Below are positions 937-45,567 of a stretch of 59,215 bases of DNA, one piece after another; positions within the stretch are counted from its first letter, which is position 1, and each line of letters opens with the position of its first letter. Origin of the DNA: an uncultured Gammaproteobacteria bacterium (GTDB taxonomy: Bacteria > Patescibacteriota > Microgenomatia > 2-02-FULL-39-11); the NCBI GenBank assembly GCA_964544585.1, contig CAZJBV010000007.1:1-59215 (forward strand), written 5' to 3'. The translations under genes and the position numbers were made by a program. The notes beneath the pieces were generated by a model. That model had not been told where the DNA came from, ran no database searches, and saw nothing but the letters and a program-made list of their open reading frames with translations.

Positions 937-1977
937 TCAATATTTGAAGAATGAATATTTATTGCTAAGTCCGATTATCTCTCTCACCTCCGTCATCGTC
1001 TCCGCTGCCACTTTTCGAGTTTTTTCTGCACCCTCTTTTAGTATTTCCTTTACCATCACAGGGTTTGATTTAAGTTCATTATATCTTTCTCTTGCCGGTC
1101 CGAAAGTTTTCATTAGAGATTCAAATAAATATTCTTTCACCTCCACATCCCCCACTTTCCCCTCTTTATATCGCTTTTTATATTCCGCAACTTGCCCTTT
1201 TTCTCCAAAAAAATCCAAATAAGAAAACACCATATTTCCCTCAATATGTCCAGGATCTGTCGGATGAATCCGTGTCGGATCTGTATATGTATCCATCACC
1301 TGCTTTTTTATGACCGCTTCATCTTCAAATATACTGATAATATTTCCCAAAGATTTACTCATTTTTCTTTTCCCATCAGTCCCCATTATCACAGCTACTT
1401 CTTCGGGAATATACGGATCTGGCAAAGGAAATATATCGGTTCGGTAGGTCTTATTAAACCTTTCCGCAATATCCCGCGTTATCTCTATATGCTGCTTCTG
1501 ATCCTTCCCCACAGGCACGAGATCTGGCTTATAAAGAAGTATATCCGAGGCCATCAAAATCGGATAATTAAAAAGACCCAAATTAATATCGTCTTCTTTA
1601 GTCTCTTTTGCAAGTTTATCTTTATATGCATGAGCCCGCCTCAAAAGCCCCAATGGCGTCACAGTATTTAAAATCCACGTCAGTTCCGCATGCTCCAAAA
1701 CATCAGACTGTCTGAAAAAAGTAATATTAGCCTGCCCTGAGCCTGTCGAAGGGGTCAGATCTCCCAATAGCGCCAACTCATTTAAAATCAACGTCTCTGT
1801 ATTCTTCTGCAAAGTTTCCTTATTTTGAATAGTCGTCAATGCATGCAGATCAGCCACCATCAAAAAGCAATCAACGGATTTGGCTAGCTCTATAAATTGT
1901 CTTACAGCTCCTAAATAATTTCCTATATGGAGGGTTCCATCTCCACTCGGAGTAATTCCAGCCAGTATTCTTTTCAT
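937..1977 (-). CDS. trpS: Tryptophanyl-tRNA synthetase
   Basis: GITPSG..LHIGNYLG (HIGH), KMSKS, YPILMASDILLY, VPVGKDQKQH; carries an extra TPSTGSGQA segment. Confidence 0.97.
   Translation of the reverse strand: MKRILAGITPSGDGTLHIGNYLGAVRQFIELAKSVDCFLMVADLHALTTIQNKETLQKNTETLILNELALLGDLTPSTGSGQANITFFRQSDVLEHAELTWILNTVTPLGLLRRAHAYKDKLAKETKEDDINLGLFNYPILMASDILLYKPDLVPVGKDQKQHIEITRDIAERFNKTYRTDIFPLPDPYIPEEVAVIMGTDGKRKMSKSLGNIISIFEDEAVIKKQVMDTYTDPTRIHPTDPGHIEGNMVFSYLDFFGEKGQVAEYKKRYKEGKVGDVEVKEYLFESLMKTFGPARERYNELKSNPVMVKEILKEGAEKTRKVAAETMTEVREIIGLSNKYSFFKY
1730..1754. repeat. REP-like element (ccctgagcctgtcgaagg type) inserted in frame in trpS
   Basis: gcctgccctgagcctgtcgaagggg encodes TPSTGSGQA in a loop before the 'F.QSDV' motif. 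Confidence 0.6.
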
Positions 1978-2723
1978 GGTTTTATTGTACCAGCTTTAAG
2001 AAGCCTTATAAATCTTTTTAAACCCTTTATCCCCCTTTTATCATATTCATTAATAATCGCACTTCCTACAATTGCTATTTCTGCATGACCATATAGTAAC
2101 TCAATCTGTTCTCTTTTCGATATCCCAAATCCGATAGCCAAAGGAAGATCTGTTACTTTTCTTACTCTCTCAATATATTCAAATAGACTTTTATTAAATA
2201 CACTCTTTGTTCCAGTCACACCAAAATGACTTACTAAGTAAAGAAATCCTTTCCCTATTTTTGAATTTATCCTTACTCTTTCCTCACTACTCGATGGAGA
2301 AATTACCCTAATAGAATCTACGCTATATTTATTACACAGCGCTATAAACTGCTCATTCTTCTCTTCTTCAGGCGGAATATCAGGAACAATTAATCCCTCC
2401 ACCCCTAAATCTTTTGCTTTTTTTATAAATCGTTCTACCCCATACCGAAAGACTTGATTGTAATAGCACATAATATATTTAGGTACATGATACTTTTTCA
2501 ACGAATCTATAAATTGAAACGCACGATCTGTATTCATTCCATTTTTCAATGCCACCTCCAATGCATGCATAATAGTCTCCCCATCGGCTACAGGATCCGA
2601 AAAAGGAATCTGCAGCTCCAAATAATCAGCTCCGCCATCAACAAGAGTCTTTACAATCTCATAACTCTCACCAACATTCGGATATCCTACCACCACATGA
2701 GTCATAAGTTTTATTTTGTTCAT
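1974..2723 (-). CDS. trpA: Tryptophan synthase alpha chain
   Basis: LELQIPFSDPVADG, GLIVPDIP, GVTG, IGFGIS, IVGSA motifs. Confidence 0.97.
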   Translation of the reverse strand: MNKIKLMTHVVVGYPNVGESYEIVKTLVDGGADYLELQIPFSDPVADGETIMHALEVALKNGMNTDRAFQFIDSLKKYHVPKYIMCYYNQVFRYGVERFIKKAKDLGVEGLIVPDIPPEEEKNEQFIALCNKYSVDSIRVISPSSSEERVRINSKIGKGFLYLVSHFGVTGTKSVFNKSLFEYIERVRKVTDLPLAIGFGISKREQIELLYGHAEIAIVGSAIINEYDKRGIKGLKRFIRLLKAGTIKP

Positions 2724-3961
2724 ACTTTAGTCCTCAAAAATTCAATCCAATTTTTGTCATTAAGTGCTTCCGCAACTATAAATATATCTTTATCTCCCCT
2801 TCCAGAAAGATTTACAACTATTATTTTGTCTTTCGAAAGTTTGGGCGCAAGTTTGATAGCTTCAGCCACCGCATGTGCCGATTCCAACGCGCATATTATC
2901 CCCTCAGACTTTGCCAAAAGTTTATACGCCTCCAAAACTTGCCTGTCAGTTGCATATGTAAACTTTACCCTTCCCACACTCCCGAGATACGCCAATTGCG
3001 GCCCAATCCCAGGATAATCGAGTCCCGCAGACACACTATGCGTTGCCGAAATATTGCCATATTTATCTTGCAAAAAAAGCGATTTATATCCTTCGACAAC
3101 TCCTGTTTCTCCACCAGCAAATCTCGCCGCATGATCACCAATTTTCTTTACTCCTCTACCTCCCGCTTCCACTCCAATAAGTTTGACATTTTCATCATCC
3201 AAAAACCGATAAAATATTCCCATCGCATTACTTCCTCCACCCGTACAGGCGACGATATAATCCGGTAATCTTCCTTCCCTCCTCATTATCTCTTCCTTCA
3301 CCTCAATCCCTACAACTTGTTGAAAATCACGGTTTATAGTAGGAAAAGGATGCGGCCCGACAGTCGATCCCAAAAGATAATGAGTATTTTCTACATTCGT
3401 AATCCAGTCTTTCAAAGCCGCATTCACCGCATCTTTCAAAGTCTTCGTTCCAAAGGAAACAGATATAACTTTAGCTCCCAGCTGCTCCATCCAAAATACA
3501 TTTGGCCGCTGCCGGGCTACATCCACGGCACCCATGTAGACTACACACTCCAATCCAAATTTCGCTGCCACAGTCGCCGCCGCCACCCCATGTTGACCTG
3601 CTCCAGTCTCTGCAATAAGCCTCTTCTTCCCCATTCTCGTGGCCAAAAGTGCCTGGCCTATACAATGCGTTATTTTATGTGCTCCGGATAGATTGAGTCC
3701 CTCATTTTTTAAATAAATTTTTGCTCCTCCCAAACTTTTAGTTAAATTCGAAGCCAAAGTCAAAGGCGTCGGTCTACCCGCGTATGTATACAATAACTCC
3801 ATAAATTCTCTCCCAAAGTTTGTATCTTTTTTCGCTCTATCGTATGCTTGCTCCAATTCCGTAAGTGCCGGAATAAGCATTTCCGGTGCATATCTGCCGC
3901 CAAATTTACCAAAATGACCTTTTGAGTCTCCATCAAACTTTGTCTTAAAATCAAAAATCAT
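2720..3961 (-). CDS. trpB: Tryptophan synthase beta chain
   Basis: GAHK PLP lysine, IAETGAGQHG, GGGSNA, SAGLDYPGIGP, NLSGRGDKD. Confidence 0.98.
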   Translation of the reverse strand: MIFDFKTKFDGDSKGHFGKFGGRYAPEMLIPALTELEQAYDRAKKDTNFGREFMELLYTYAGRPTPLTLASNLTKSLGGAKIYLKNEGLNLSGAHKITHCIGQALLATRMGKKRLIAETGAGQHGVAAATVAAKFGLECVVYMGAVDVARQRPNVFWMEQLGAKVISVSFGTKTLKDAVNAALKDWITNVENTHYLLGSTVGPHPFPTINRDFQQVVGIEVKEEIMRREGRLPDYIVACTGGGSNAMGIFYRFLDDENVKLIGVEAGGRGVKKIGDHAARFAGGETGVVEGYKSLFLQDKYGNISATHSVSAGLDYPGIGPQLAYLGSVGRVKFTYATDRQVLEAYKLLAKSEGIICALESAHAVAEAIKLAPKLSKDKIIVVNLSGRGDKDIFIVAEALNDKNWIEFLRTKV

Positions 3962-6297
3962 AATACTCCTCTCGCATTCTTCACAAATGCAATAATCTTC
4001 TCGCTATCCTTTTTTCCATTAGTCTCCACTCCTCCTGCAACATCCACTGCAAAAGGCGCAACCCCCGCCACAATCCCTCCCACATTCTCCGGATTTAAAC
4101 CCCCGGCCAAAAAAATCGGATACTGCCTTGCCATATTTTTTGCATACTCCAGTGAAACCATCTTACCTTTCCCTTGTTCTTCCCTATCAACGAGAAAATA
4201 TGCCACAGAATATGAATCAGTTTTTCTTGCAGAAATCGTTTTTATCACCTGACAATCAATTTCATCGCAATAGTAAGGGCTCTCCTCTCCATGTAGTTGC
4301 ACAAAATCTAAATGAAGATTTTGCACAACATGATTTATATACGCTTTATTCTGATCTTGAAAAACTCCCACAAATTGTATTTTTCCAGAAAATGACAAAA
4401 TGATGCGTTTGGCCATATCTTCTGAAATACGCCTCTTCGAACTCGGCACAAAATTCAAGCCAATAAAATCTACACCGGCCTCAATACACATTTGTGCCTC
4501 CTCAACCGTTTTTATTCCACAGATTTTGATTTTAGTTTTCATAGTATTTAAGGGTCGGACCCTGAAGGGTCCGACCCTTTCCAAACTTTTCAACTTCTTT
4601 ATAAGTTTTGCCGGGTCGTCCGATTTCATCAATATAGTTCCAACCAAAACCCCTTTTGCCCCAGCTTTTTTATACCTTTCGATATCACGAGCTTCTTTCA
4701 CTCCTGAAAACGCAAGCGCCGTATGCGTTTTGGGAATTTTTCCTAGTATTTCACATGCTTTTTTCCTGTCAATTGAAAAATCGTCCAAATTGCGAGAATT
4801 GACAGCAACAATCTCCACCCCCGTCTTCAATGCACCTATTAACTCCTCCTCTGTATTCACTTCCACCACCGGCTCCATCCCCAATGCTTCTACCAATTTG
4901 ACCAATTGGACTAATTTGTCCAATGATAATATCTTCGCAATCAACAAAACAGCGTCCGCCCCATTCTTTTTTGCCTTATAAATCTGATCTTTACTTACAA
5001 CAAAGTCTTTACAAAGAATAGGTAAAGTAGTTAAATTCCTCACAAAGGAGAGTAACTCATAGCTTCCGCCAAAACGTTTTTTATCAACCACAACCGACAG
5101 ACAATCTGCCTCCCCCTTTTCATATGCAATTACTTTTCCTTTTACATCTCTCTTCTCTCCCAGTTTTCCTTCTGTTGGGGATTTTAGCTTTATCTCAGCA
5201 ATCAGCGAAGTATTACTATTTTTTGGATGCAAAATAGCATTACGAAATTTATTTCTATTTTGTGAAAAAGATATGAATGTCTCCAATACTTTTTTGGCTC
5301 TTCCTGAATCTATAGACTTCTTCGCCATCAAAATGCCCTCGTCAATAGTCTTTGCTTTTCCGGAAACATACAATGCTAGGGCACTATTGAAAATGACAAT
5401 ATCTCTTCTCCCTCCCTGCCTGCCGGCAGGCAGGCCTCTCTCTCCATCTAAAATTGACTTTATTATGGCTGCATTCTCTTTCGCATCCCCACCATGTATA
5501 AAATTATTTTTTTCATATTTAAATCCATATTTTTTAGGATCAAGAATATATTTTTTTGCCTTTTTTCCTTTTACTTCAAAAACATGGGTCTTTGCCAAAA
5601 CACTCACCTCATCGAGCCCATCCTCACTCGTAAGAATCAAAAGGTGCTCATACCTCAAACGAGCTGCAACGCGTGAAAGTTTCTCGGCAATCTCCAAATT
5701 CGGAACCCCTATTATCTGTCTTTTTACCCCTGCCGGATTCACCAATGGACCCAAAAAATTAAATATCGTCCGAATTCCCAATTCTCTACGTACAAGCGAA
5801 ACATGTTTCATCGCCGGATGATAAAGTGGAGCAAAAAGGAAAGTTATTCCTACTTCCTTCAAACACCTCATTACCTGCGCAGCCGTTAGCATTATATTTA
5901 CTCCCATTGCCTCCAAAACATCAGCACTTCCGCTCTTACTGCTGGCGGCTCGATTTCCATGTTTAGCAACCGCAACCCCTGCGCCTGTTACTACAAACGC
6001 CGTCGCCGTCGATATATTAAATGTCCCCTTTCCATCTCCTCCCGTCCCACACACATCTATTGCTCCCGCCCCAATCGGCATCTTCACCATTCTCCTCCTC
6101 ATTGCTTTTATAAAACCTATGATTTCTTCTTCTGTCTCTCCCTTCATTCGTAAACCAGTCAATAAAGAAGCAATCTGTACCCCTGTCAGGTTTCCTTGCA
6201 ATATTTCCCCCATCAACATCTCTGCCTGTCTGATAGTAAGGTTTCTTGTACTAAGTACGGTATTTAAAAATTGTGTAATTGAAAATTGAGATTTCAT
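3958..6297 (-). CDS. trpD/trpC/trpF: Triple fusion: anthranilate phosphoribosyltransferase (TrpD) - indole-3-glycerol-phosphate synthase (TrpC) - phosphoribosylanthranilate isomerase (TrpF)
   Basis: TrpD: DVCGTGGDG, AKHGNR, SGSADVLE; TrpC: IAEIK..SP, KDF, GADAVLLI, N.RNL; TrpF from internal Met at 4542: KIKICGI, QLHGEE, LAGGL, VDVAGGVE; one continuous 779-aa frame. Confidence 0.93.
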   Translation of the reverse strand: MKSQFSITQFLNTVLSTRNLTIRQAEMLMGEILQGNLTGVQIASLLTGLRMKGETEEEIIGFIKAMRRRMVKMPIGAGAIDVCGTGGDGKGTFNISTATAFVVTGAGVAVAKHGNRAASSKSGSADVLEAMGVNIMLTAAQVMRCLKEVGITFLFAPLYHPAMKHVSLVRRELGIRTIFNFLGPLVNPAGVKRQIIGVPNLEIAEKLSRVAARLRYEHLLILTSEDGLDEVSVLAKTHVFEVKGKKAKKYILDPKKYGFKYEKNNFIHGGDAKENAAIIKSILDGERGLPAGRQGGRRDIVIFNSALALYVSGKAKTIDEGILMAKKSIDSGRAKKVLETFISFSQNRNKFRNAILHPKNSNTSLIAEIKLKSPTEGKLGEKRDVKGKVIAYEKGEADCLSVVVDKKRFGGSYELLSFVRNLTTLPILCKDFVVSKDQIYKAKKNGADAVLLIAKILSLDKLVQLVKLVEALGMEPVVEVNTEEELIGALKTGVEIVAVNSRNLDDFSIDRKKACEILGKIPKTHTALAFSGVKEARDIERYKKAGAKGVLVGTILMKSDDPAKLIKKLKSLERVGPFRVRPLNTMKTKIKICGIKTVEEAQMCIEAGVDFIGLNFVPSSKRRISEDMAKRIILSFSGKIQFVGVFQDQNKAYINHVVQNLHLDFVQLHGEESPYYCDEIDCQVIKTISARKTDSYSVAYFLVDREEQGKGKMVSLEYAKNMARQYPIFLAGGLNPENVGGIVAGVAPFAVDVAGGVETNGKKDSEKIIAFVKNARGVL
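4550..4579. repeat. Perfect 14-bp-arm inverted repeat at the trpC/trpF junction
   Basis: aagggtcggaccct-ga-agggtccgaccctt. Confidence 0.9.
5414..5434. repeat. 21-bp 'PAGRQ' palindromic element, in frame in trpD
   Basis: ccctgcctgccggcaggcagg; encodes LPAGRQG. Confidence 0.9.
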
Positions 6298-6312
6298 TGA
6301 AAATTTAAAATT

Positions 6313-6333
6313 CCTGCCTGCCGGACAGGCAGG
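6313..6333. repeat. 21-bp 'PAGRQ' palindromic element, intergenic, inside a TGAAAAT heptamer array
   Basis: cctgcctgccggacaggcagg. Confidence 0.85.
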
Positions 6334-6338
6334 GAAAA

Positions 6339-6917
6339 TTAAAAATTTAGAAAATTCCTCAGAATTTTCCTCCCCTCCTCCGTCCCAATCGATTCCGGAT
6401 GAAACTGTATTCCATATATCGGATACTCAGTATGCCTAACCCCCATAATCTCTCTATCATCCAAAGACTCCGAAGTCACCTCAAGACATTTAGGTATCGA
6501 TGTCTTTTCCCCCACGAGGGAATGATAACGCATGCCCAAAAGCGGATTTTTGACCTTTTGGAAAATACCCTTACTATTATGCTTAATTAAACTTTTCTTC
6601 CCGTGTTTCACCATCCCTGCCCTTACCACTCTCCCGCCAAAAGCATAAATTACTCCTTGATGCCCAAGACATACGCCTAAAATAGGAATGTTTTTCCCAA
6701 TCTTCAAGATCACATCACTACATACGCCAAAATATGCCCTATCGGAAGGATCTCCTGGTCCCGGCGAAATTACAATATGCGTATATTTTCCTCTACCAAC
6801 TTCATCCAAAGTTATTTCATTATTTCTCATAACAACTGGCTTCCCTCCCAATTCCCCAATATACTGGTAAAGGTTATATGTAAACGAATCATAGTTATCA
6901 ATAATGAGTGTTTTCAT
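6339..6917 (-). CDS. trpG: Anthranilate synthase component II (glutamine amidotransferase)
   Basis: Probable start Met at 6917: MKTLIIDNYDSFTYNL, ISPGPG, GVCLGHQ, QFHPES. Confidence 0.96.
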   Translation of the reverse strand: MKTLIIDNYDSFTYNLYQYIGELGGKPVVMRNNEITLDEVGRGKYTHIVISPGPGDPSDRAYFGVCSDVILKIGKNIPILGVCLGHQGVIYAFGGRVVRAGMVKHGKKSLIKHNSKGIFQKVKNPLLGMRYHSLVGEKTSIPKCLEVTSESLDDREIMGVRHTEYPIYGIQFHPESIGTEEGRKILRNFLNF

Positions 6918-6925
6918 ATTAGTGA

Positions 6926-7006
6926 GATAAACGATAAGGGATAAAGGATAAAAGAGTAAATAAATATTACATTGCACTTTTATCTTTTATCTTCATATCT
7001 TTTATC
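6926..7006. repeat. Inverted GATA/TATC heptamer arrays at the trpE-trpG junction
   Basis: GATA at 6926/6933/6940/6947; TATC at 6981/6988/6996/7003. Confidence 0.8.
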
Positions 7007-8370
7007 CCTTTTCCCTGCGCCTCGCGCAGCGCCTCCTCCACCGCTTTCTGTTTATTCACTATCTCTAAAAATTCCGAAGAAGAAGTAGAGTCAGCCACAA
7101 TTCCGCTTCCTGTCTGTGTATAGGCATAGCTGCCCTTTCTAAAAAAGGAGCGGATAATAATAGCCATCATCGCCTCCTGATTAAACGAAAAATACCCTCC
7201 CACACCTCCATATGGCCCCCTCGCCTCCCCTTCTAGATTAGCTATTATTTTTAATGCCTCCACTTTTGGAGCTCCCGACAGCGTCCCGGCCGGAAAACAA
7301 GCCGAAAGTGCCGAAAAAGCATTCTCTCTTTTTTTTAATACTCCATGTATTTCCGAAAAAATATGCTGCACATGACTAAACTTTTTAATACTTGCCAATT
7401 TTTCCACTCTTATACTTCCAAATTCACAAATCCTTCCCACATCGTTTCTGGCCAGATCAACCAGCATCATATGTTCGGCCATCTCTTTCGGATCTCCCAA
7501 AAGCTTCTTTTCAAATTTTTTATCATCTTTTTCTGTCACACCTCTCCCAATCGTTCCTGCCAATGTCCCGAAGTGCTCAATTTTTTCTCCCGCAACCCTT
7601 ATCAATAGTTCAGGACTGGCAGATAAAATTTCTCTCTCTCCAAATTTAAAATACATCATATAGGGAGAAGGATTGATCTGCCGCAAAATAGCATATACTC
7701 GCCTCGTATCTCCCGATACTTTAAAATGTGTTTTTTGAGAAACAACAACCTGAAATATGTTACCTTTTCTTATCTGTTCCAAGGCTTCAAAAGTAATTCT
7801 CTCCTGCCTTTCTTTATTAACCGTTTTTAATTTACTAAAAGAAAATGATCCGATGGATGAAGGAGTATGTATTGCCTTCAAAATTTTACCCACTCTACTC
7901 TTGCCATAACTAAAATAAACGCAACTTTTTTTCTTCTTATCAAATCTGAGGCCATCCAAGAAAAGTCCCATCTCAAAATCAGGAAATTCTGGATTATGAT
8001 GCCCCACAAAAGCCTTCTCAAAATATTTTGTCGCCTCATATGAAAAATAACCTACCAGTCCTCCGCAGTATCCCTCCTTCTTTGCAGCCTTAATCCTCGC
8101 AAATTCACTCATATATTCATAAATATCTTTCACCTTTTCTCGCCTTCCATTAATTAAAAGCTCATATCCCTTCGCTGTAATTAAAAACAGTGGATCAAAG
8201 CCGATATAAGAAAATCTGTTATATTTACCTTCCTCTCCCAAACTCTCTAACAAAAACATATTTTCACACAACCCATAAAGCCGTTTAAAAGCCTCAAATG
8301 CCGAAATAGACAAATCGATTTTCTCTTCTTGATATTTCCCGAGTTTGATATCTTTGAATATGTTATCCAT
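6967..8370 (-). CDS. trpE: Anthranilate synthase component I
   Basis: FLLES, GLVGYFSYE, INPSPYM, SASPELL, EH.MLVDLARND, FPAGTLSGAPK; first gene of the trp cluster. Confidence 0.95.
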   Translation of the reverse strand: MDNIFKDIKLGKYQEEKIDLSISAFEAFKRLYGLCENMFLLESLGEEGKYNRFSYIGFDPLFLITAKGYELLINGRREKVKDIYEYMSEFARIKAAKKEGYCGGLVGYFSYEATKYFEKAFVGHHNPEFPDFEMGLFLDGLRFDKKKKSCVYFSYGKSRVGKILKAIHTPSSIGSFSFSKLKTVNKERQERITFEALEQIRKGNIFQVVVSQKTHFKVSGDTRRVYAILRQINPSPYMMYFKFGEREILSASPELLIRVAGEKIEHFGTLAGTIGRGVTEKDDKKFEKKLLGDPKEMAEHMMLVDLARNDVGRICEFGSIRVEKLASIKKFSHVQHIFSEIHGVLKKRENAFSALSACFPAGTLSGAPKVEALKIIANLEGEARGPYGGVGGYFSFNQEAMMAIIIRSFFRKGSYAYTQTGSGIVADSTSSSEFLEIVNKQKAVEEALREAQGKGIKDMKIKDKSAM

Positions 8371-8494
8371 AGATTCCTTTCCATAATCCCAGTACTATGC
8401 TTACTTGCTCCCGAGGTTTACATCCTCGCGTCGCAAGAGCGCAAGTACGGGATGTGGGAGAGTAAGATTCATTTTATTCATCAACTCTCCCATC

Positions 8495-8540
8495 AAAAAA
8501 ACCCTCTTTCTCCCCGATCCAATGGGGGGTACTCAAGGGT
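8495..8540 (-). terminator. Intrinsic terminator of the T-box leader
   Basis: ACCCU...CCCC...GGGG...AGGGU followed by a U-run; its 5' arm overlaps the antiterminator 3' strand. Confidence 0.8.
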
Positions 8541-8746
8541 GTATTTCTACACGGTGCCACCTTGCTTTTCGCAATCTCAATAAAAAATCCCGACCAAAGT
8601 CGGGACACATCAAGAGATTACTCTCATTCTTGACATGCTCCGTCCGCCAGCTGGCGGATGACACATGTTGCTTGACTTTCTCCGGTTTCGCCTCCGTATC
8701 CGATTTAGGGATCAGCTCCAAGGGTCCAACCATCCCTCATCATCGC
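8495..8746 (-). promoter_or_regulatory. T-box riboswitch, Trp (UGG) specifier, ultra-short stem I
   Basis: Antiterminator AAGG-UGGCACC-GUG...CAC-CCUU (8535-8563); stem I GCGAUGA-UGAGGG[AUGGUUGGA]CCCUUG-GAGC (8715-8746) with UGG at 8726-8728; overlapping terminator. Confidence 0.88.
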
Positions 8747-8875
8747 TTTTCTTAAACTCATAATATCATACCACATCTGTCAAATTTACGTACCGGCAGT
8801 GAAATTTCTGCTTTACTATATATAAACGAACCACTAAGATATATATAATACTTATTATTGCCTTATATTCGATAT

Positions 8876-9571
8876 ATGGCCAAATCGTCTGAACGTATTA
8901 AAGCACGAGAATTGCGTCAACAAGGTATAAGTGTTGGAGAAATTGCAAAAACATTAAATGTTTCAAAAAGCACTGTTAGCCTTTGGGTCAGAGATATTAT
9001 TTTAAGCATTGAACAATTAGAGAAACTGCAGCAGCGAAGTCTTGAAGGTCGTGAAAGAGGTCAATTATTGGGTGCCCTTGCTCAAAAAAGAAAACGCCTA
9101 GAACTCATAGAAAAGGAGCGACAAAATGGATGGCGCCTTCTTTCAATGATCTCTGATAGAGAGTTTTTTGTGGCTGGTTTAGCTTTATATGCGGGTGAAG
9201 GGAACAAAAAAACCCGTGCAGTACGTTTCAGCAATTCCGATCCAATGATTATAAAATTTATGATCAAATGGTTCAAAAAATTCTTTGATGTTAAAAATGA
9301 CGACTTTCATTGCTTTATAGGTATAAACGCAATCCATCGATCAAGAGAAGGAATCGTAAAGAAGTACTGGTCAGAAATAACAGATATTCCACTCAATAGT
9401 TTTTGGAAAACTAGCTTCAAAAAGACAGTTAGTAAGAAAATCTATATAAATTTTAATGAACATTATGGAACTTTAGATGTACGTATATTGCACCCAGCTC
9501 CTATTTTTTATAAAATGTTGGGACTCATCGATGGATTACTTAACTCAACCATCGATGATAAAAAGGTATAA
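8876..9571 (+). CDS. HTH + LAGLIDADG-like protein adjacent to a tRNA
   Basis: N-terminal HTH (ARELRQQGISVGEIAKTLNVSKSTVSLW); AGLALYAGEG helix followed by VRFSNSDP; ends 5 bp before tRNA-Met. Confidence 0.7.
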   Translation: MAKSSERIKARELRQQGISVGEIAKTLNVSKSTVSLWVRDIILSIEQLEKLQQRSLEGRERGQLLGALAQKRKRLELIEKERQNGWRLLSMISDREFFVAGLALYAGEGNKKTRAVRFSNSDPMIIKFMIKWFKKFFDVKNDDFHCFIGINAIHRSREGIVKKYWSEITDIPLNSFWKTSFKKTVSKKIYINFNEHYGTLDVRILHPAPIFYKMLGLIDGLLNSTIDDKKV

Positions 9572-9576
9572 TATCA

Positions 9577-9649
9577 GGCAGGGTAGCTCAGTGGTAGTAG
9601 CGCACGCTTCATAAGCGTGAAGTCAAGGGTTCGATCCCCTTCCCTGCTA
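9577..9649 (+). tRNA. tRNA-Met(CAU), probably elongator; CCA not encoded
   Basis: Acceptor GGCAGGG/CCCUGCU; anticodon arm CACGC-UUCAUAA-GCGUG; T-arm GGUUCGAUCC; lacks initiator hallmarks (C1:A72 mismatch, three G-C pairs). Confidence 0.92.
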
Positions 9650-9730
9650 CAAGCAATCGTCCAAACAGTTCCTCTCCCCTGGCACTAATAAAATCGCAAA
9701 TAGGACCTGGAAGAATCTCAAAAGAATAGT

Positions 9731-12692: not shown

Positions 12693-12721
12693 TTTCCGAC
12701 AATCCTTTTTCTCCAAAACTG

Positions 12722-12793
12722 TGGGCCTGCTTGGGATCGAACCAAGGACATCCAAATTATAAGTTTGGCGCTCTGCCACTGAGCTACAGGCCC
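12722..12793 (-). tRNA. tRNA-Ile(UAU); CCA not encoded
   Basis: 72-nt cloverleaf: GGGCCUG/CAGGCCC, anticodon arm CCAAA-CUUAUAA-UUUGG, T-arm CUUGG-UUCGAUC-CCAAG. Confidence 0.93.
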
Positions 12794-26328: not shown

Positions 26329-27003
26329 ATGCTTCAAAGAAGAACTAAATACCTCCAAATTGCCCTCAATAGTACGCTCAATGAAGCCTATCAAATCATC
26401 TCTACCCTTCCCTCCAGTCCCCGTATTATTATTGAGGCCGGCACACCTCTCATCAAAAGATACGGTACTGAAGCCATTTCCAGTCTTTATGCATGGTGGC
26501 AACAAAGACTTAATGGCACAAACACCCTTCCCTACGTCGCTGCCGACCTAAAAACCATGGATCGCGGCGAAACAGAAGTTGTCATAGCCAAAGAAGGAGG
26601 AGCTTCTGCAGCCATCGCATTAGGTCAAGCTCCCATCGAAACAATCAACGCCTTTATCGATTCCTGTAAAAAAACCTCTCTTGACTCCATGCTCGATATG
26701 ATGAATATAGACCAACCAGTAAAAGTCCTTCGCAGACTTAAAAAATTACCAGACGTCGTCCTCCTCCATCGCGGCGTCGACGAGGAGTCTTACAATAAAG
26801 ACAAACCCATCCCCTATCATCAGATAAATAAACTTAGGGCAAGTTACAACGTCAAAATATCAATAGCAGGAGGAGATACAATCAGAGAAGTCCAAAGAGC
26901 AGTCTTTAACGATGCCGATATAGTCGTCGTCTGGAAAGAATTCTACCAATCGTCAGAAGACACAGGCACCCTCGCCGAGGAATTTTTAAAAGTAATAAAG
27001 TGA
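26329..27003 (+). CDS. OMPDC/HUMPS-fold protein (3-hexulose-6-phosphate synthase-like)
   Basis: LQIAL, IIEAGTPLIKRYG, ADLKTMD (DxKxxD), LHRGVDEE, IAGG. Confidence 0.8.
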   Translation: MLQRRTKYLQIALNSTLNEAYQIISTLPSSPRIIIEAGTPLIKRYGTEAISSLYAWWQQRLNGTNTLPYVAADLKTMDRGETEVVIAKEGGASAAIALGQAPIETINAFIDSCKKTSLDSMLDMMNIDQPVKVLRRLKKLPDVVLLHRGVDEESYNKDKPIPYHQINKLRASYNVKISIAGGDTIREVQRAVFNDADIVVVWKEFYQSSEDTGTLAEEFLKVIK

Positions 27004-41177: not shown

Positions 41178-41202
41178 GCATAACTTCTTATTTAGTCTTA
41201 CT

Positions 41203-41250
41203 AAACTTCTCCTCTACCTTCCCCCAATTCACCACATTCCACCATGCCTT
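41203..41250 (-). repeat. Diverged copy of the sodA 3' end (copy 4)
   Basis: 39/48 nt identical to 44956-45003; reads [23 protein letters not shown]. Confidence 0.9.
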
Positions 41251-41268
41251 TATATAATAAGATCCAAT

Positions 41269-42278: not shown

Positions 42279-42279
42279 T

Positions 42280-42321
42280 AAATCTCTTTTCCACCTCTTC
42301 CCAATTCACCACATTCCACCA
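42280..42321 (-). repeat. Diverged copy of the sodA 3' end (copy 3)
   Basis: 36/42 nt identical to 44956-44997; reads WWNVVNWEEVEKRFISTRQ*. Confidence 0.9.
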
Positions 42322-42446
42322 GACTAGCTTTCTTTTTTCCCTTCCCATCAACCTCTTAATCTATAATCCTACGAAATAAACAAATTTAGAAGGATACTTA
42401 TCCCATAAAACTTGACAATTTTATAGGAATCATCTATACTTAATCA

Positions 42447-43577: not shown

Positions 43578-43730
43578 TTTCCGCCTCCAAAACCACTCTT
43601 AGCTTAGCCATACTTGACAAACAAAGCAGAAAGAGAATTACTCGGGGGGTGATTAAGATGTCAATAAATTATGAAATATATTTTCGATATGATGTTACTA
43701 AAAGTACGCCTTAGAGGTGTCTCAGATCGT

Positions 43731-43778
43731 AAACCTCTTCTCTACCTCTCCCCAATTCACCGCATTCCACCAAGCCTT
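43731..43778 (-). repeat. Diverged copy of the sodA 3' end (copy 2)
   Basis: 43/48 nt identical to 44956-45003; reads KAWWNAVNWGEVEKRFTI*; followed by a 19-bp match (43709-27 = 44901-19). Confidence 0.92.
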
Positions 43779-43803
43779 GATAAATTAGCTTGTGGTCTGA
43801 TCT

Positions 43804-44940: not shown

Positions 44941-45567
44941 TTATTTTAACTGAGTAAACCTCCTCTCCACCTCTCTCCAATTCACTACATTCCACCAAGC
45001 CTTAATATAATCAGCCCTCCTGTTTTGATATTTAAGATAATACGCATGTTCCCAAACATCTACACCTAAAATCGGAGATTTACCCTGCCTGCCGGCAGGC
45101 ACGGCTTCCATCCAAGGATTATCCTGATTAGGTGTGTCAGTAATCGACAGTTTCCCAACATCTGAAATAAGCCACGCCCATCCGCTTCCAAATCGTCCAA
45201 TACCAGCTTTAGAAAAAGCCTCTTGAAACTTGGCAAAATCTCCAAACGTACTTTTTATCGCCTCTGCAACCCTTCCGCTAGGTTCTCCCCCTTTTTTCGG
45301 CCCCATTATCTGCCAAAAAAAGCTATGGTTTATATGCCCTCCCCCATTATTTCTGACTTTCGTTCTCACCTCGGCAGACACCTGATCCAAATTCTTCATC
45401 AATTCCTCCGGTGACATATTCAGAAATTTGTCTTGCCCCTTCAAAAACTCATTTAAGTTTGTCACATAGGCCCCGTGATGCTTGTCATGATGAATTTTCA
45501 TCGTCTGCTCATCAATATAAGGCTCCAAAGCGTTATACGCATAAGGCAATTCAGGTAATGTAAACAT
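44941..45567 (-). CDS. sodA: Fe/Mn superoxide dismutase
   Basis: [47 protein letters not shown]. Confidence 0.96.
45084..45104. repeat. 21-bp 'PAGRQ' element, in frame in sodA
   Basis: cctgcctgccggcaggcacgg; removing it restores MEGK. Confidence 0.9.

Follow-up and report, generated by a model that had tools for sequence, protein, structure and literature searches.

The trp operon and its leader

The minus strand of the window (the whole 59,215-nt stretch of DNA that was analysed) carries the genes trpE-G-(DCF)-B-A-trpS, identified from open reading frames and their Pfam domains (Table 1). Together these genes encode the whole tryptophan pathway and tryptophanyl-tRNA synthetase (TrpRS). They lie 3′ of a leader at 8747..8495, the position at which an earlier note on this DNA had placed a Trp T-box with an ultra-short Stem I. 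A search of the window with Rfam at gathering score returned two tRNAs only and missed the T-box. No gene for tRNA-Trp was found in the 59-kb window or in 47 related loci.

Table 1 Features of the trp locus, in window coordinates
Feature	Position	Strand	Basis
Promoter-like block TTGACA-N4-TGGTATGAT	8783..8765	-	Read from the sequence; 3′ end 17 nt before Stem I
Ultra-short Stem I, 34 nt, K-turn-based	8714..8747	-	RF00230 alignment, family model, covariation
Vestigial Stem II, 4-bp hairpin	8698..8713	-	RF00230 alignment (low posterior), RNAalifold
Stem IIA/F-box-like hairpin CGG-AGGCGAAA-CCG	8683..8696	-	Alignment of relatives, covariation
Extra helix P-x	8633..8668	-	Fold (-19.3 kcal/mol), covariation; no counterpart in the RF00230 consensus
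Stem III	8571..8621	-	RF00230 alignment of closing helix, fold, covariation
Antiterminator	8535..8563	-	RF00230 T-box core, posterior ~1.0
Terminator hairpin and U7	8495..8540	-	Folding, compensatory changes in subgroup
Conserved structured element, 124 nt, outside the T-box proper	8371..8494	-	Folding, compensatory pairs
Operon trpE-G-(DCF)-B-A-trpS, predicted to be regulated	937..8370	-	ORFs, Pfam
trpE	8370..6967	-	Pfam Chorismate_bind, Anth_synt_I_N
trpG	6977..6339	-	Pfam GATase
trpD-trpC-trpF fusion	6297..3958	-	Pfam Glycos_transf_3, IGPS, PRAI
trpB	3961..2720	-	Pfam PALP
trpA	2723..1974	-	Pfam Trp_syntA
trpS	1977..937	-	Pfam tRNA-synt_1b

The promoter-like block upstream of the leader consists of TTGACA (8783..8778) followed by TG-G-TATGAT, an extended -10 element with its hexamer at 8770..8765. 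It was not called by a consensus promoter scanner, because its spacing is odd. The block is kept as TTGACAnnnnTGGTAT(G/T)AT in leaders L001, L003, L004/L084 and L083, and more distant relatives have TTGACA-17-TATAAT, 6–12 nt before Stem I. The inferred transcription start is about 10 nt upstream of Stem I.

Stem I and the specifier

In a permissive covariance scan of 601 nt, the Infernal comparison suggested by the earlier note, the T-box model RF00230 matched 8752..8532(-) and was aligned end to end (E = 1.3e-6). The score, 36.9 bits, is below the gathering score of 93. The alignment deletes 74 model positions of the distal Stem I and has 9 nt in their place, so that the AG bulge and the distal loop, whose interdigitated T-loops contact the tRNA elbow, are absent from the leader, as the earlier note had said. 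What is left is a C-stem (AGC 8747..8745 paired with GCU 8716..8714), a GA motif and a 6-bp helix of UGAGGG (8739..8734) with CCCUUG (8724..8719), closed by the 9-nt apical loop AUGGUUGGA (8733..8725). The 5′ half of the K-turn is AGCGAUGA, starting at G8746, and the closing GGAGCU is 8719..8714; the pattern AGC-GAU-GA ... GGA-GCU is aligned to the K-turn columns of RF00230. The UGG at 8728..8726 in the apical loop is followed by a purine, A8725.

The earlier note had named a full-length Stem I folding from further upstream as a finding that would overturn its proposal, and none was found. With only some 20 nt between the K-turn halves, upstream sequence cannot lengthen Stem I, and the conserved promoter block, ending 17 nt upstream, leaves no space for an extension; together with the distal deletion in the covariance alignment these points exclude a longer stem. 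The long-range pairings in the minimum free energy fold of 301 nt were likewise discarded: promoter DNA takes part in them, and relatives do not keep them.

About 45 Patescibacteria trpE leaders have the same design. A family model, R1, comprising the K-turn, the Stem I with apical UGG and IIA, was derived from 10 relatives, the window not being among them; its alignment takes in 10 of 15 decoding modules, since MAFFT misaligned a subgroup whose Stem II is longer. R1 matched the window at 8748..8680(-) with 52.4 bits (E ~1e-11), and the next-best site in the 59 kb, at 26653..26570(-), scored 13.5 bits (E 0.12) and has no T-box sequence downstream; it was dismissed as noise. In the related loci R1 gave 32 sites, all of them upstream of trpE and on the same strand. 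RF00230, by comparison, scores the relatives at 36–48 bits or does not detect them at E ≤ 0.1, and at its gathering score it misses the whole group.

The earlier note had also proposed a covariation check across CPR trp leaders, and the outcome is strongly positive. Compensatory changes occur in 12 of the 13 modelled pairs, and double-change cells number 55 against 13.8 ± 3.7 in shuffles. In the model-based (R1) alignment, which is fitted to the structure, 90.8% of cells are paired, against 23–47% in slid controls. An alignment of Stem I alone, from 24 distinct leaders, agrees with the covariation result; these leaders were chosen for a helix flanking UGG, a criterion that raises the paired percentage artificially and leaves the compensatory pattern unaffected. 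Within Stem I, all six helix pairs and two of the three C-stem pairs show compensatory changes. The TrpE proteins of the more than 30 lineages with this architecture are only 42–66% identical.

In the same Stem I alignment UUGG in the loop is invariant and is followed by a purine in 24/24 leaders. The first UGG of the window loop (8732..8730) was rejected as the specifier as its positions vary among relatives. The comparison thus supports the assignment of the element as a T-box with a predicted Trp (UGG) specifier and adjacent purine in the apical loop. The loop is shortened to 6 nt (GGUUGG) in L025, L051, L116 and L138. In a more distant set (L030, L045, L047, L053, L071, L079, L122, L126 and L129) UGG lies 3′ in an internal loop under one short hairpin cap, which is absent from the window leader; these leaders are also Trp-specific, have no distal module and end in strong terminators with U-runs.

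The middle domain and the proposed switch

Four helical elements lie between Stem I and the antiterminator. The vestigial Stem II pairs as AUCC/GGAU or UGAU/AUCG around a loop CCCUAA(A); the hairpin is predicted by RNAalifold, with compensatory changes within the subgroup. No S-turn is recognisable in it, and the AGUA/GAA signature is missing. The relatives retain AGUA-like loops in Stem II hairpins of 3–5 bp, of the form GC-AAAAGUAU-GC or CGC-AAAAUACAUAAU-GCG, with AGUA aligned to the S-turn. The next hairpin is aligned with high confidence to IIA and the F-box in the relatives, and both the hairpin and CCG(U/G)A are present in the window leader and covary in the family (CGG/CCG, CAG/CUG and CUG/CAG; double changes in 4/4 pairs). 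A candidate IIB pairing of the loop GRCG with UGUC (8663..8660) is consistent in every leader, with one-sided changes only.

P-x is built from ACAUG (8668..8664), UGUC, the cap hairpin UCCGCCAGCUGGCGGA (8658..8643), GGAG and CAUGU (8637..8633). Its outer helix covaries as ACAUG/CAUGU, ACGAG/CUCGU, GCGUG/CACGU, CUAUG/CAUAG, GCGUU/AACGC and CUCUU/AAGAG; UGUC and GGAG are conserved in the family and the cap is variable. In Stem III the closing helix, GUAAUCUC (8621..8614) with GAGAUUGC (8578..8571), encloses a GC-rich hairpin, GUCCCGAC-UUUG-GUCGGGAU (8606..8587), followed by U6AUU (8587..8579). The predicted energy is -25.4 kcal/mol for Stem III overall and -13.7 kcal/mol for the nested hairpin alone.

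This nested hairpin with its U6 is the one site flagged by a terminator scanner, and a hairpin with U6–7 is conserved here, with covariation, in L001–L006, L081, L083, L084, L086 and L014. It equals the terminator in strength and lies upstream of the T-box sequence, beyond the control of the antiterminator. There is a precedent for T-boxes that use a pause as a kinetic checkpoint (PMC13001445). We tentatively suggest that the hairpin could be a programmed pause, giving time for slow tRNA capture without elbow contact; this is a possible role and a rather doubtful one.

The P-x cap and the distal hairpin of Stem III also account for two palindromes which the earlier note had placed in the leader at 8643–8658 and 8588–8605. 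These positions are correct; the description of them as "the genome's palindromes" is not borne out in the window, where CCGCCAGCTGGCGG occurs once and CCCGA..TCGGG hairpins three times. Both hairpin modules are found again in related leaders, at many positions. They were rejected as abundant repeats or foreign insertions and are variable caps.

The antiterminator (AAGG-UGGCACC-GUG...CAC-CCUU) is canonical; the earlier note had read both it and the terminator as such. In the antiterminator, helix A1 pairs AAGG (8563..8560) with CCUU (8538..8535) and helix A2 pairs GUGUA (8552..8548) with UACAC (8543..8539) around a GAAA loop; between A1 and A2 is the 7-nt T-box bulge UGGCACC (8559..8553). The sequence GGUGGNACC occurs only here in the window, and A2 is paired in the ~45 relatives despite differing sequence. 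The discriminator of bacterial tRNA-Trp is G73, which C8556 of the UGGC bulge presumably suits; UGGU replaces UGGC in L030, L131, L136, L150 and L160.

The terminator has a base helix of ACCCUU (8540..8535) with GAGGGU (8506..8501), then an internal loop and an upper helix of CCCC (8527..8524) with GGGG (8515..8512); U7 is 8501..8495. The segment 8540..8535 is common to the terminator and the antiterminator, so the two folds are mutually exclusive. They are predicted at -12.9 to -14.7 and -4.6 kcal/mol, respectively, a difference of about 8–10 kcal/mol. The base helix shows compensatory changes within the subgroup, and in nearly all relatives a corresponding hairpin, at -15 to -30 kcal/mol, precedes U5–7. 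The window terminator, which has an internal loop interrupting it, is the weakest of the family: about -13 to -15 kcal/mol, compared with -20 to -30 kcal/mol for the family.

Beyond the U-run is an element outside the T-box proper, composed of hairpin A (8494..8455), a three-helix domain (core 8452..8380) and the Shine–Dalgarno sequence (SD) GGAAAGGAA. It folds with -50 kcal/mol (z = -6.46), and a comparison of the window with L002 and L086 shows compensatory changes in 8 of its 24 predicted pairs. The closest relatives do not have it, their AUG coming directly after the U-run. It gave no Rfam match, and neither the window nor 160 loci yielded further copies. The SD and AUG of trpE lie 124 nt past the U-run, and hence only a transcriptional reading can reach trpE. 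We infer a transcriptional mode for the window leader. The ~45 relatives retain the hairpin and U5–7 with the start codon anywhere from 0 to 290 nt downstream; in about half of them this hairpin takes in the ribosome-binding site as well, and these leaders may be dual-acting. General use of intrinsic terminators by the genome was dropped as support, as the window shows no enrichment: a simple terminator scan found no excess (11 against 13.8 ± 4.4 in shuffles), and of seven sites in the window with a strong hairpin and at least six U, two are inside the leader, one of the points against a chance resemblance to a T-box, and none is at an obvious gene end.

A switch that is mainly translational, in which the hairpin would sequester the ribosome-binding site, with the U-run as spacer between SD and AUG, would fit the 22 of 45 leaders, the closest relatives L001, L003, L004, L081 and L083 included, in which the start codon follows the U-run by 0–5 nt and AAGG or GAGG in the 3′ arm lies at -11 to -16. 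The window too has GAGG in this arm and then an AUG at 8493, and all characterised T-boxes with a short Stem I act in this way (PMC7583486, PMC10482949, PMC11297988). The AUG, however, opens only a 30-codon upstream ORF, which is not conserved (the ORFs of L002 and L086 have 3 codons), and the true SD and AUG of trpE are out of reach of sequestration behind a stable independent structure. Nor does a spacer need to be a pure U5–7 abutting a GC-rich stem, yet such a run persists in about 20 leaders that have their start codon and SD 9–290 nt away. A mainly translational switch is thus unlikely in the window; dual control is likely in the compact relatives and is no rival explanation here.

The same features could be read as those of a decaying or non-functional relic, which has lost the distal Stem I and the S-turn, has been parted from trpE and has a constitutive terminator-like hairpin ahead. 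The RF00230 score, the weakest terminator of the family, the 124-nt insertion missing in the closest relatives, the hairpin and U6 upstream of the T-box sequence and the reduced nature of CPR genomes all point this way. The low Rfam score, however, comes from deleted positions and not from mismatches, and the leader scores 52 bits with the model of its own family. The K-turn, the specifier and purine, IIA, the 7-nt bulge, A1 and A2, the overlapping terminator and U7 are all intact and in register, the architecture is under compensatory evolution in the more than 30 lineages, and L002 and L086 share the insertion and have intact T-boxes; a relic is accordingly quite improbable. It is harder still to credit that the apical loop is no Trp specifier and instead presents a GGU (Gly) codon, or that GGUUGG pairs with CACC of the bulge independently of tRNA. 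GGU does precede UGG in most leaders, and RNAalifold pairs the GG.UG columns of the loop with CA/CC of the T-box sequence, but all of these columns are invariant in the subgroup alignment, so the pairing is unsupported. GGU is moreover replaced by AAU, UUU, UGU or CGU in L150, L066, L115, L102, L055, L098 and L100, with UUGG and CACC fixed. The discriminator of bacterial tRNA-Gly is U73, which would need UGGA and not UGGC, and the genes downstream are those of Trp biosynthesis and TrpRS.

A proposed terminating T-box without elbow contact

Taken together, the structural claims for a Trp T-box with an ultra-short Stem I hold, and we put at roughly three in four the probability that a tRNA-Trp-responsive T-box with a miniaturised decoding module controls trpE-G-(DCF)-B-A-trpS by transcription attenuation. 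The sequence comparison establishes the anatomy, the place in a covarying family, the agreement of codon with operon and the mutual exclusion of the two folds; that tRNA-Trp binds, what the middle domain does and that transcription terminates are predictions from the RNA and its relatives. In the transcript from the putative start, the CCA anticodon of tRNA-Trp would pair with UGG of the 9-nt apical loop, with A8725 stacking beneath, on a 34-nt Stem I that offers no distal platform for the tRNA elbow. By analogy with the ileS-type T-boxes, the vestigial Stem II, IIA/F-box and P-x, which adjoin Stem I across the K-turn, probably brace the codon–anticodon duplex. The 3′ GCCA of an uncharged tRNA would pair with UGGC of the bulge and stabilise the weak antiterminator, allowing read-through into trpE. 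With a charged tRNA, or none, the overlapping hairpin and U7 would form and transcription would stop at about 8495.

The nearest known relatives in design are the Class III ileS T-boxes of Nocardia farcinica, Mycobacterium tuberculosis and M. smegmatis with their "ultrashort" Stem I, and the likeness to these translational actinobacterial T-boxes drawn by the earlier note agrees with the published classes (PMC10482949, PMC7583486). Shared with them are the basal K-turn, a short Stem I that lacks the elbow module, an apical-loop specifier followed by a purine, a IIA/F-box-like hairpin downstream and the discriminator core with its 7-nt UGGN bulge, A1 and A2. The published apical loops are penta- and hexaloops (PMC10482949), which the 6-nt loops of some relatives match, whereas that of the window has 9 nt. 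The Class III examples are specific for Ile, occur in Actinobacteria ahead of an aminoacyl-tRNA synthetase gene alone and use an SD sequestrator; the window leader is Trp-specific, belongs to Patescibacteria, precedes a biosynthetic operon and has a hairpin and U7 terminator. P-x and the hairpin and U-run nested in Stem III are extras of the window leader. Class III also depends on a long, S-turn-bearing Stem II (PMC7583486 section 4), the S-turn's purine string bracing the codon–anticodon duplex, in contrast to the 4-bp hairpin of the window.

With the Class I T-boxes of Firmicutes trp operons and trpS the leader shares the UGG specifier, the UGGN bulge, the competing terminator and antiterminator, the downstream trp genes and trpS, and the order Stem I, Stem II, IIA and candidate IIB, Stem III and antiterminator. 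The Firmicute Stem I has ~90–100 nt, whereas 74 model positions are deleted in the window leader, which scores far below Rfam gathering. Class II glyQS T-boxes have no Stem II domain, and likewise in L153 and L155, and partly in L008 and L090, a single-stranded linker connects Stem I with the antiterminator. Class II makes up for this with elbow contact and a Stem I of full length, both of which are missing from these leaders, and the window differs from Class II in retaining a reduced Stem II/IIA region. L153 and L155 consist of hardly more than a 32-nt Stem I, a 25–35-nt linker and the antiterminator/terminator, ~95–130 nt in all.

According to the published rule, transcriptional T-boxes need an elbow-binding module for fast capture of the tRNA, a short stem being acceptable only where the switch is translational and faces no deadline (PMC7583486 section 6.2; PMC11297988). 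In the accessible literature short stems are associated with translational actinobacterial ileS T-boxes, although a passing mention of terminator-linked ones elsewhere is possible; our literature searches found no T-boxes reported for CPR/Patescibacteria, and the text and supplements of TBDB name no CPR lineage.

In the more than 30 covarying leaders the shortest type of Stem I is united with strong intrinsic terminators, which makes the rule testable in natural sequences. Either there is another means of fast capture (the reduced Stem II/IIA/P-x, a programmed pause or a slow polymerase), or termination T-boxes need less than thought. The evidence seems to us about evenly balanced on whether Patescibacteria have a distinct functional class of T-box, which would make a co-transcriptional termination decision by reading tRNA-Trp through an apical-loop codon without elbow contact, aided in the lineage of the window by the reduced Stem II/IIA/P-x and a programmed pause at Stem III. 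If they do, L153 and L155 would be the smallest natural T-boxes, and the anticodon and NCCA contacts would suffice for a kinetic switch; such smallest members would be attractive as minimal scaffolds for synthetic tRNA-responsive switches. The leaders extend T-boxes to the candidate phyla radiation, and since the RF00230 gathering score misses the group, riboswitch censuses of the CPR undercount them.

Architecture of the leader and its operon

The whole element lies on the minus strand and is read 5' to 3' from about 8783. Re-reading of that strand showed the coordinates and sequence details of the earlier note to be exact, and both palindromes it had placed in the leader were found there, one capping an extra helix (P-x) and the other forming distal Stem III.

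Features of the trpE leader and operon, in window positions
Feature	Position	Strand	Details
Promoter-like block	8783..8765	-	TTGACA-N4-TGGTATGAT; also in related loci L001, L003, L004, L083
Stem I	8747..8714	-	K-turn AGC-GAU-GA ... GGA-GCU; 6-bp helix UGAGGG/CCCUUG; 9-nt apical loop AUGGUUGGA
Small hairpin (Stem II position)	8713..8698	-	
IIA hairpin	8696..8683	-	CGG-AGGCGAAA-CCG
P-x extra helix	8668..8633	-	cap is palindrome UCCGCCAGCUGGCGGA
Stem III	8621..8571	-	distal part is second palindrome GUCCCGAC-UUUG-GUCGGGAU, then U6AUU
Antiterminator	8563..8535	-	AAGG-UGGCACC-GUGUA-GAAA-UACAC-CCUU
Hairpin with terminal U7	8540..8495	-	overlaps antiterminator
Structured RNA	8494..8371	-	124 nt, between U7 and trpE start codon; core 8452..8380
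trpE start codon	8370	-	
Downstream operon		-	trpE, trpG, trpD-trpC-trpF fusion, trpB, trpA, trpS (Pfam)

In the promoter-like block the -35-like hexamer is only 7 nt from the extended -10, an unusual geometry for a promoter, or else possibly an operator. Complete trp operons are uncommon among CPR genomes. Here trpD, trpC and trpF form a single 779-aa ORF (6297..3958, minus strand) and trpS is the last gene (1977..937, minus strand), so that the charging of tRNA-Trp as well as Trp synthesis would be under a single leader. Between trpG and the fusion, in a gap of 41 nt, is a 9-bp GC-rich hairpin, CCUGCCUG-UCC-GGCAGGCAGG (6333..6313, minus strand), with no proper U-run after it. Elsewhere in the window a 58-nt block occurs four times (41202-41259, 42279-42336, 43730-43787 and 44955-45012), the copies being 66-84% identical to the first and spaced by 1.1-1.5 kb; these probably mark the common ends of minus-strand paralogues arranged in tandem.

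Identity of the T-box and its specifier

An Rfam scan at the gathering score found no T-box in the window. In a permissive scan of 8300-8900, RF00230, the Rfam T-box model proposed as a check in the earlier note, aligned end to end at 8752..8532(-) with 36.9 bits (E = 1.3e-6), below the gathering score, and with a posterior of ~1.0 over the T-box core. The 74 distal Stem I positions of the model were replaced by 9 nt, in keeping with the claim that Stem I has no elbow-binding module. The sequence GGUGGNACC occurs once in the window, at this leader. An independent test used a covariance model, R1, of K-turn, Stem I and IIA (the decoding module), built from ten related leaders with the window excluded. 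Run with filters off, R1 scored 8748..8680(-) at 52.4 bits (E ~1e-11) and the second-best site in 59 kb at 13.5 bits. The original observation is confirmed and its interpretation as a T-box supported: we judge the structural claim, a T-box that lacks the elbow module and presents UGG apically, to be about 0.9 likely.

The apical loop contains two UGGs, of which the second (8728..8726) is the conserved one and is followed by a purine. This bears out the proposed Trp specifier, UGG followed by A, and the operon content, Trp pathway plus TrpRS (Pfam), matches the codon. Bacterial tRNA-Trp has the discriminator G73, which fits the bulge UGGC. Five related leaders (L030, L131, L136, L150, L160) have UGGU instead, and an A73 discriminator is therefore predicted for tRNA-Trp of those lineages. 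Neither the window nor any of 47 related loci contained a tRNA-Trp gene. The window does carry genes for tRNA-Met (CAU; 9577..9650, plus strand) and for a tRNA-Ile with anticodon UAU (12721..12793, minus strand); the usual anticodon of that kind of tRNA-Ile is CAU, modified to lysidine.

The closest TrpE relatives (59-66% identity) come from Candidatus Gottesmanbacteria, from further MAGs of Patescibacteria and from metagenome contigs, confirming the CPR origin presumed in the earlier note. A T-box sequence with a hairpin and U-run after it is present in about 45 distinct trpE leaders of the related loci, and R1 matches 32 of the related leaders, all 32 upstream of trpE on the same strand. The Stem I of the window is shared by L001, the closest of them (UGAGGG-AUGGUUGGA-CCCUCG). 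In 24 distinct leaders the specifier lies within a 6-12-nt apical loop in which UUGG plus a purine is invariant, and the helix varies freely (GAGGG/CCCUU, CCGAC/GUCGG, CCGG/CCGG, GGAUC/GAUCC, CCCAG/CUGGG, UCCAA/UUGGG). Alignment of these 24, picked by the requirement of a helix around UGG, gave 86.5% paired cells (29-51% in slid controls), compensatory changes at 8/8 pairs and 37 double-change cells vs 11 ± 2.7 in shuffles. A model-based alignment, fitted to the covariance model, gave compensatory changes at 12/13 pairs and 55 double-change cells vs 13.8 ± 3.7. The covariation sought across CPR trp leaders is thus present, and neither the choice of leaders nor the model fitting accounts for it.

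Other relatives (L030, L045, L047, L053, L071, L079, L122, L126, L129, L145, L149, L155) hold UGG in an internal loop under one short hairpin cap, a Class IV-like Stem I; the first nine are more distant leaders from Patescibacteria, and none of these nine has a full distal domain. The cap in L045, L071 and L155 is the palindrome CCGCCAG(U/C)UGGCGG that caps P-x in the window. This module and UCCCGA..UCGGGA serve interchangeably as caps in many places in related leaders, including a K-turn insertion (L003) and terminator loops (L004, L081, L153). A tiny Stem I with neither Stem II nor IIA was found in L153 (~1324-1470), L155 (~1340-1460), L008 and L090, Stem III also being absent from L153 and L155. 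In leaders of the L153/L155 type Stem I is joined to the antiterminator/terminator through 25-35 nt of linker, in which a GAA(A)UAAG motif is retained, and such leaders may be the smallest T-boxes in nature.

Predicted termination and the region before trpE

The antiterminator and terminator share the segment 8540..8535, with folding energies of -4.6 kcal/mol vs -12.9 to -14.7 kcal/mol, the latter followed by U7. The terminator base helix shows compensatory changes within a subgroup of the related leaders. Hairpin energies in the family mostly fall between -15 and -30 kcal/mol, and U5-7 always follows. The earlier pairing of a terminator with a Trp specifier and short Stem I stands as a hairpin and U7 overlapping the antiterminator, from which termination is predicted. 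General use of intrinsic terminators by this organism found no support in two scans: a consensus scan showed no excess of them in the window, and a stricter search of the 59 kb found only seven strong hairpins with at least six U, two of them in the T-box leader and none at an obvious gene end.

A serious rival is that the hairpin sequesters the SD rather than terminating transcription. In 22 of 45 leaders (including L001, L003, L004/L084, L005, L081, L083, L153 and L155) the AUG lies 0-5 nt after the U-run and the 3' arm of the hairpin contains an SD-like AAGG or GAGG, so that one hairpin could both terminate and sequester the RBS; these 22 may act at both levels. The hairpin and U-run are, however, retained in about 20 leaders with the start codon 9-290 nt off, several having their own SD. 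In the window the trpE SD (GGAAAGGAA) and AUG lie 124 nt past the U-run behind an independent structure, leaving termination as the sole route from the switch to trpE. Sequestration in place of termination is thus unlikely, and the mechanism as a whole, with transcription attenuation acting in the window, is probable.

A GC hairpin nested in Stem III (8606..8587, -13.7 kcal/mol, then U6AUU to 8579, minus strand) equals the regulated terminator in strength and was the only site flagged by the terminator scanner. The antiterminator cannot control it because the T-box sequence comes ~25 nt after it, and it may be a leaky constitutive first terminator. L001-L006, L081, L083, L084, L086 and L014 all keep a hairpin with U6-7 here, and it covaries. 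The reading we prefer, though only tentatively, is that of a programmed pause, which would give a slow-binding elbow-less module time to catch its tRNA. An alternative pairing of 8642..8628 with 8615..8601 (14/15 pairs) would compete with both the nested hairpin and P-x.

The structured RNA before trpE consists of a long hairpin starting GAUGG, followed by three nested helices whose loop reads A(U/C)GUA(A/G)A (-50 kcal/mol, z = -6.5). It has no Rfam match; copies occur in L002 (~1415-1554) and L086 (~1352-1480), with compensatory changes at 8/24 pairs in three sequences only. The closest relatives (L001, L081, L083, L003, L004), where the AUG abuts the U-run, lack it, implying gain or repeated loss, perhaps across direct repeats of AUGG. 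The element may act as a second regulator in cis or stabilise the mRNA. An SD and AUG straight after the U-run, the ancestral arrangement, survive in the window and open a 30-codon uORF (8493..8401, minus strand) through the element; the same AUG begins 3-codon ORFs (M-V/A-G-stop) in L002 and L086, and the uORF peptide is not conserved.

Relation to known T-box classes

RF00230 places the small hairpin at Stem II and CGG-AGGCGAAA-CCG at IIA plus the F-box. The hairpin-loop AGUA of relatives aligned to the S-turn, a signature absent from the small hairpin of the window (loop CCCUAA(A)). IIA covaries (CGG/CCG, CAG/CUG, CUG/CAG), as does P-x, whose variable cap is flanked by conserved UGUC and GGAG and which the Rfam consensus does not contain. 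For IIB a candidate is UGUC with the IIA loop GRCG, a pairing compatible with every sequence and supported by one-sided changes only. The small hairpin, covarying IIA and P-x together imply that the Stem II domain is present, reduced and rearranged. T-boxes of the ileS kind make up for the missing elbow contact by bracing the codon-anticodon duplex with Stem II and IIA/B (PMC7583486 section 4); by analogy, we infer that the domain would do the same here.

Four classes are distinguished in one scheme (PMC10482949): Class I, with a Stem II domain and long Stem I; Class II (glyQS), with a long Stem I and no Stem II; Class III (Nocardia/Mycobacterium ileS), with a short Stem I, the specifier in a 5-6-nt apical loop and a required Stem II; and Class IV, with an intermediate Stem I whose specifier sits in a side bulge. 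The literature places Classes III and IV in Actinobacteria and treats both as translational, in agreement with the earlier association of apical-specifier short stems with translational actinobacterial ileS T-boxes. The TBDB short-stem model is likewise applied to Actinobacteria and labelled translational (PMC7778990), and according to reviews an elbow-binding module is generally required in T-boxes that act on transcription (PMC7583486 section 6.2; PMC11297988). We would class the window leader as a variant form of T-box: it works like a Class III decoding module with a Class I-type terminator, whereas it lacks the long Stem II with S-turn and the sequestrator that define Class III and the distal Stem I that defines Class I. 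A literature search found no paper on T-boxes in CPR/Patescibacteria, though an earlier passing mention is possible. The leader genuinely belongs to a sizeable family of covarying leaders that had gone unannotated.
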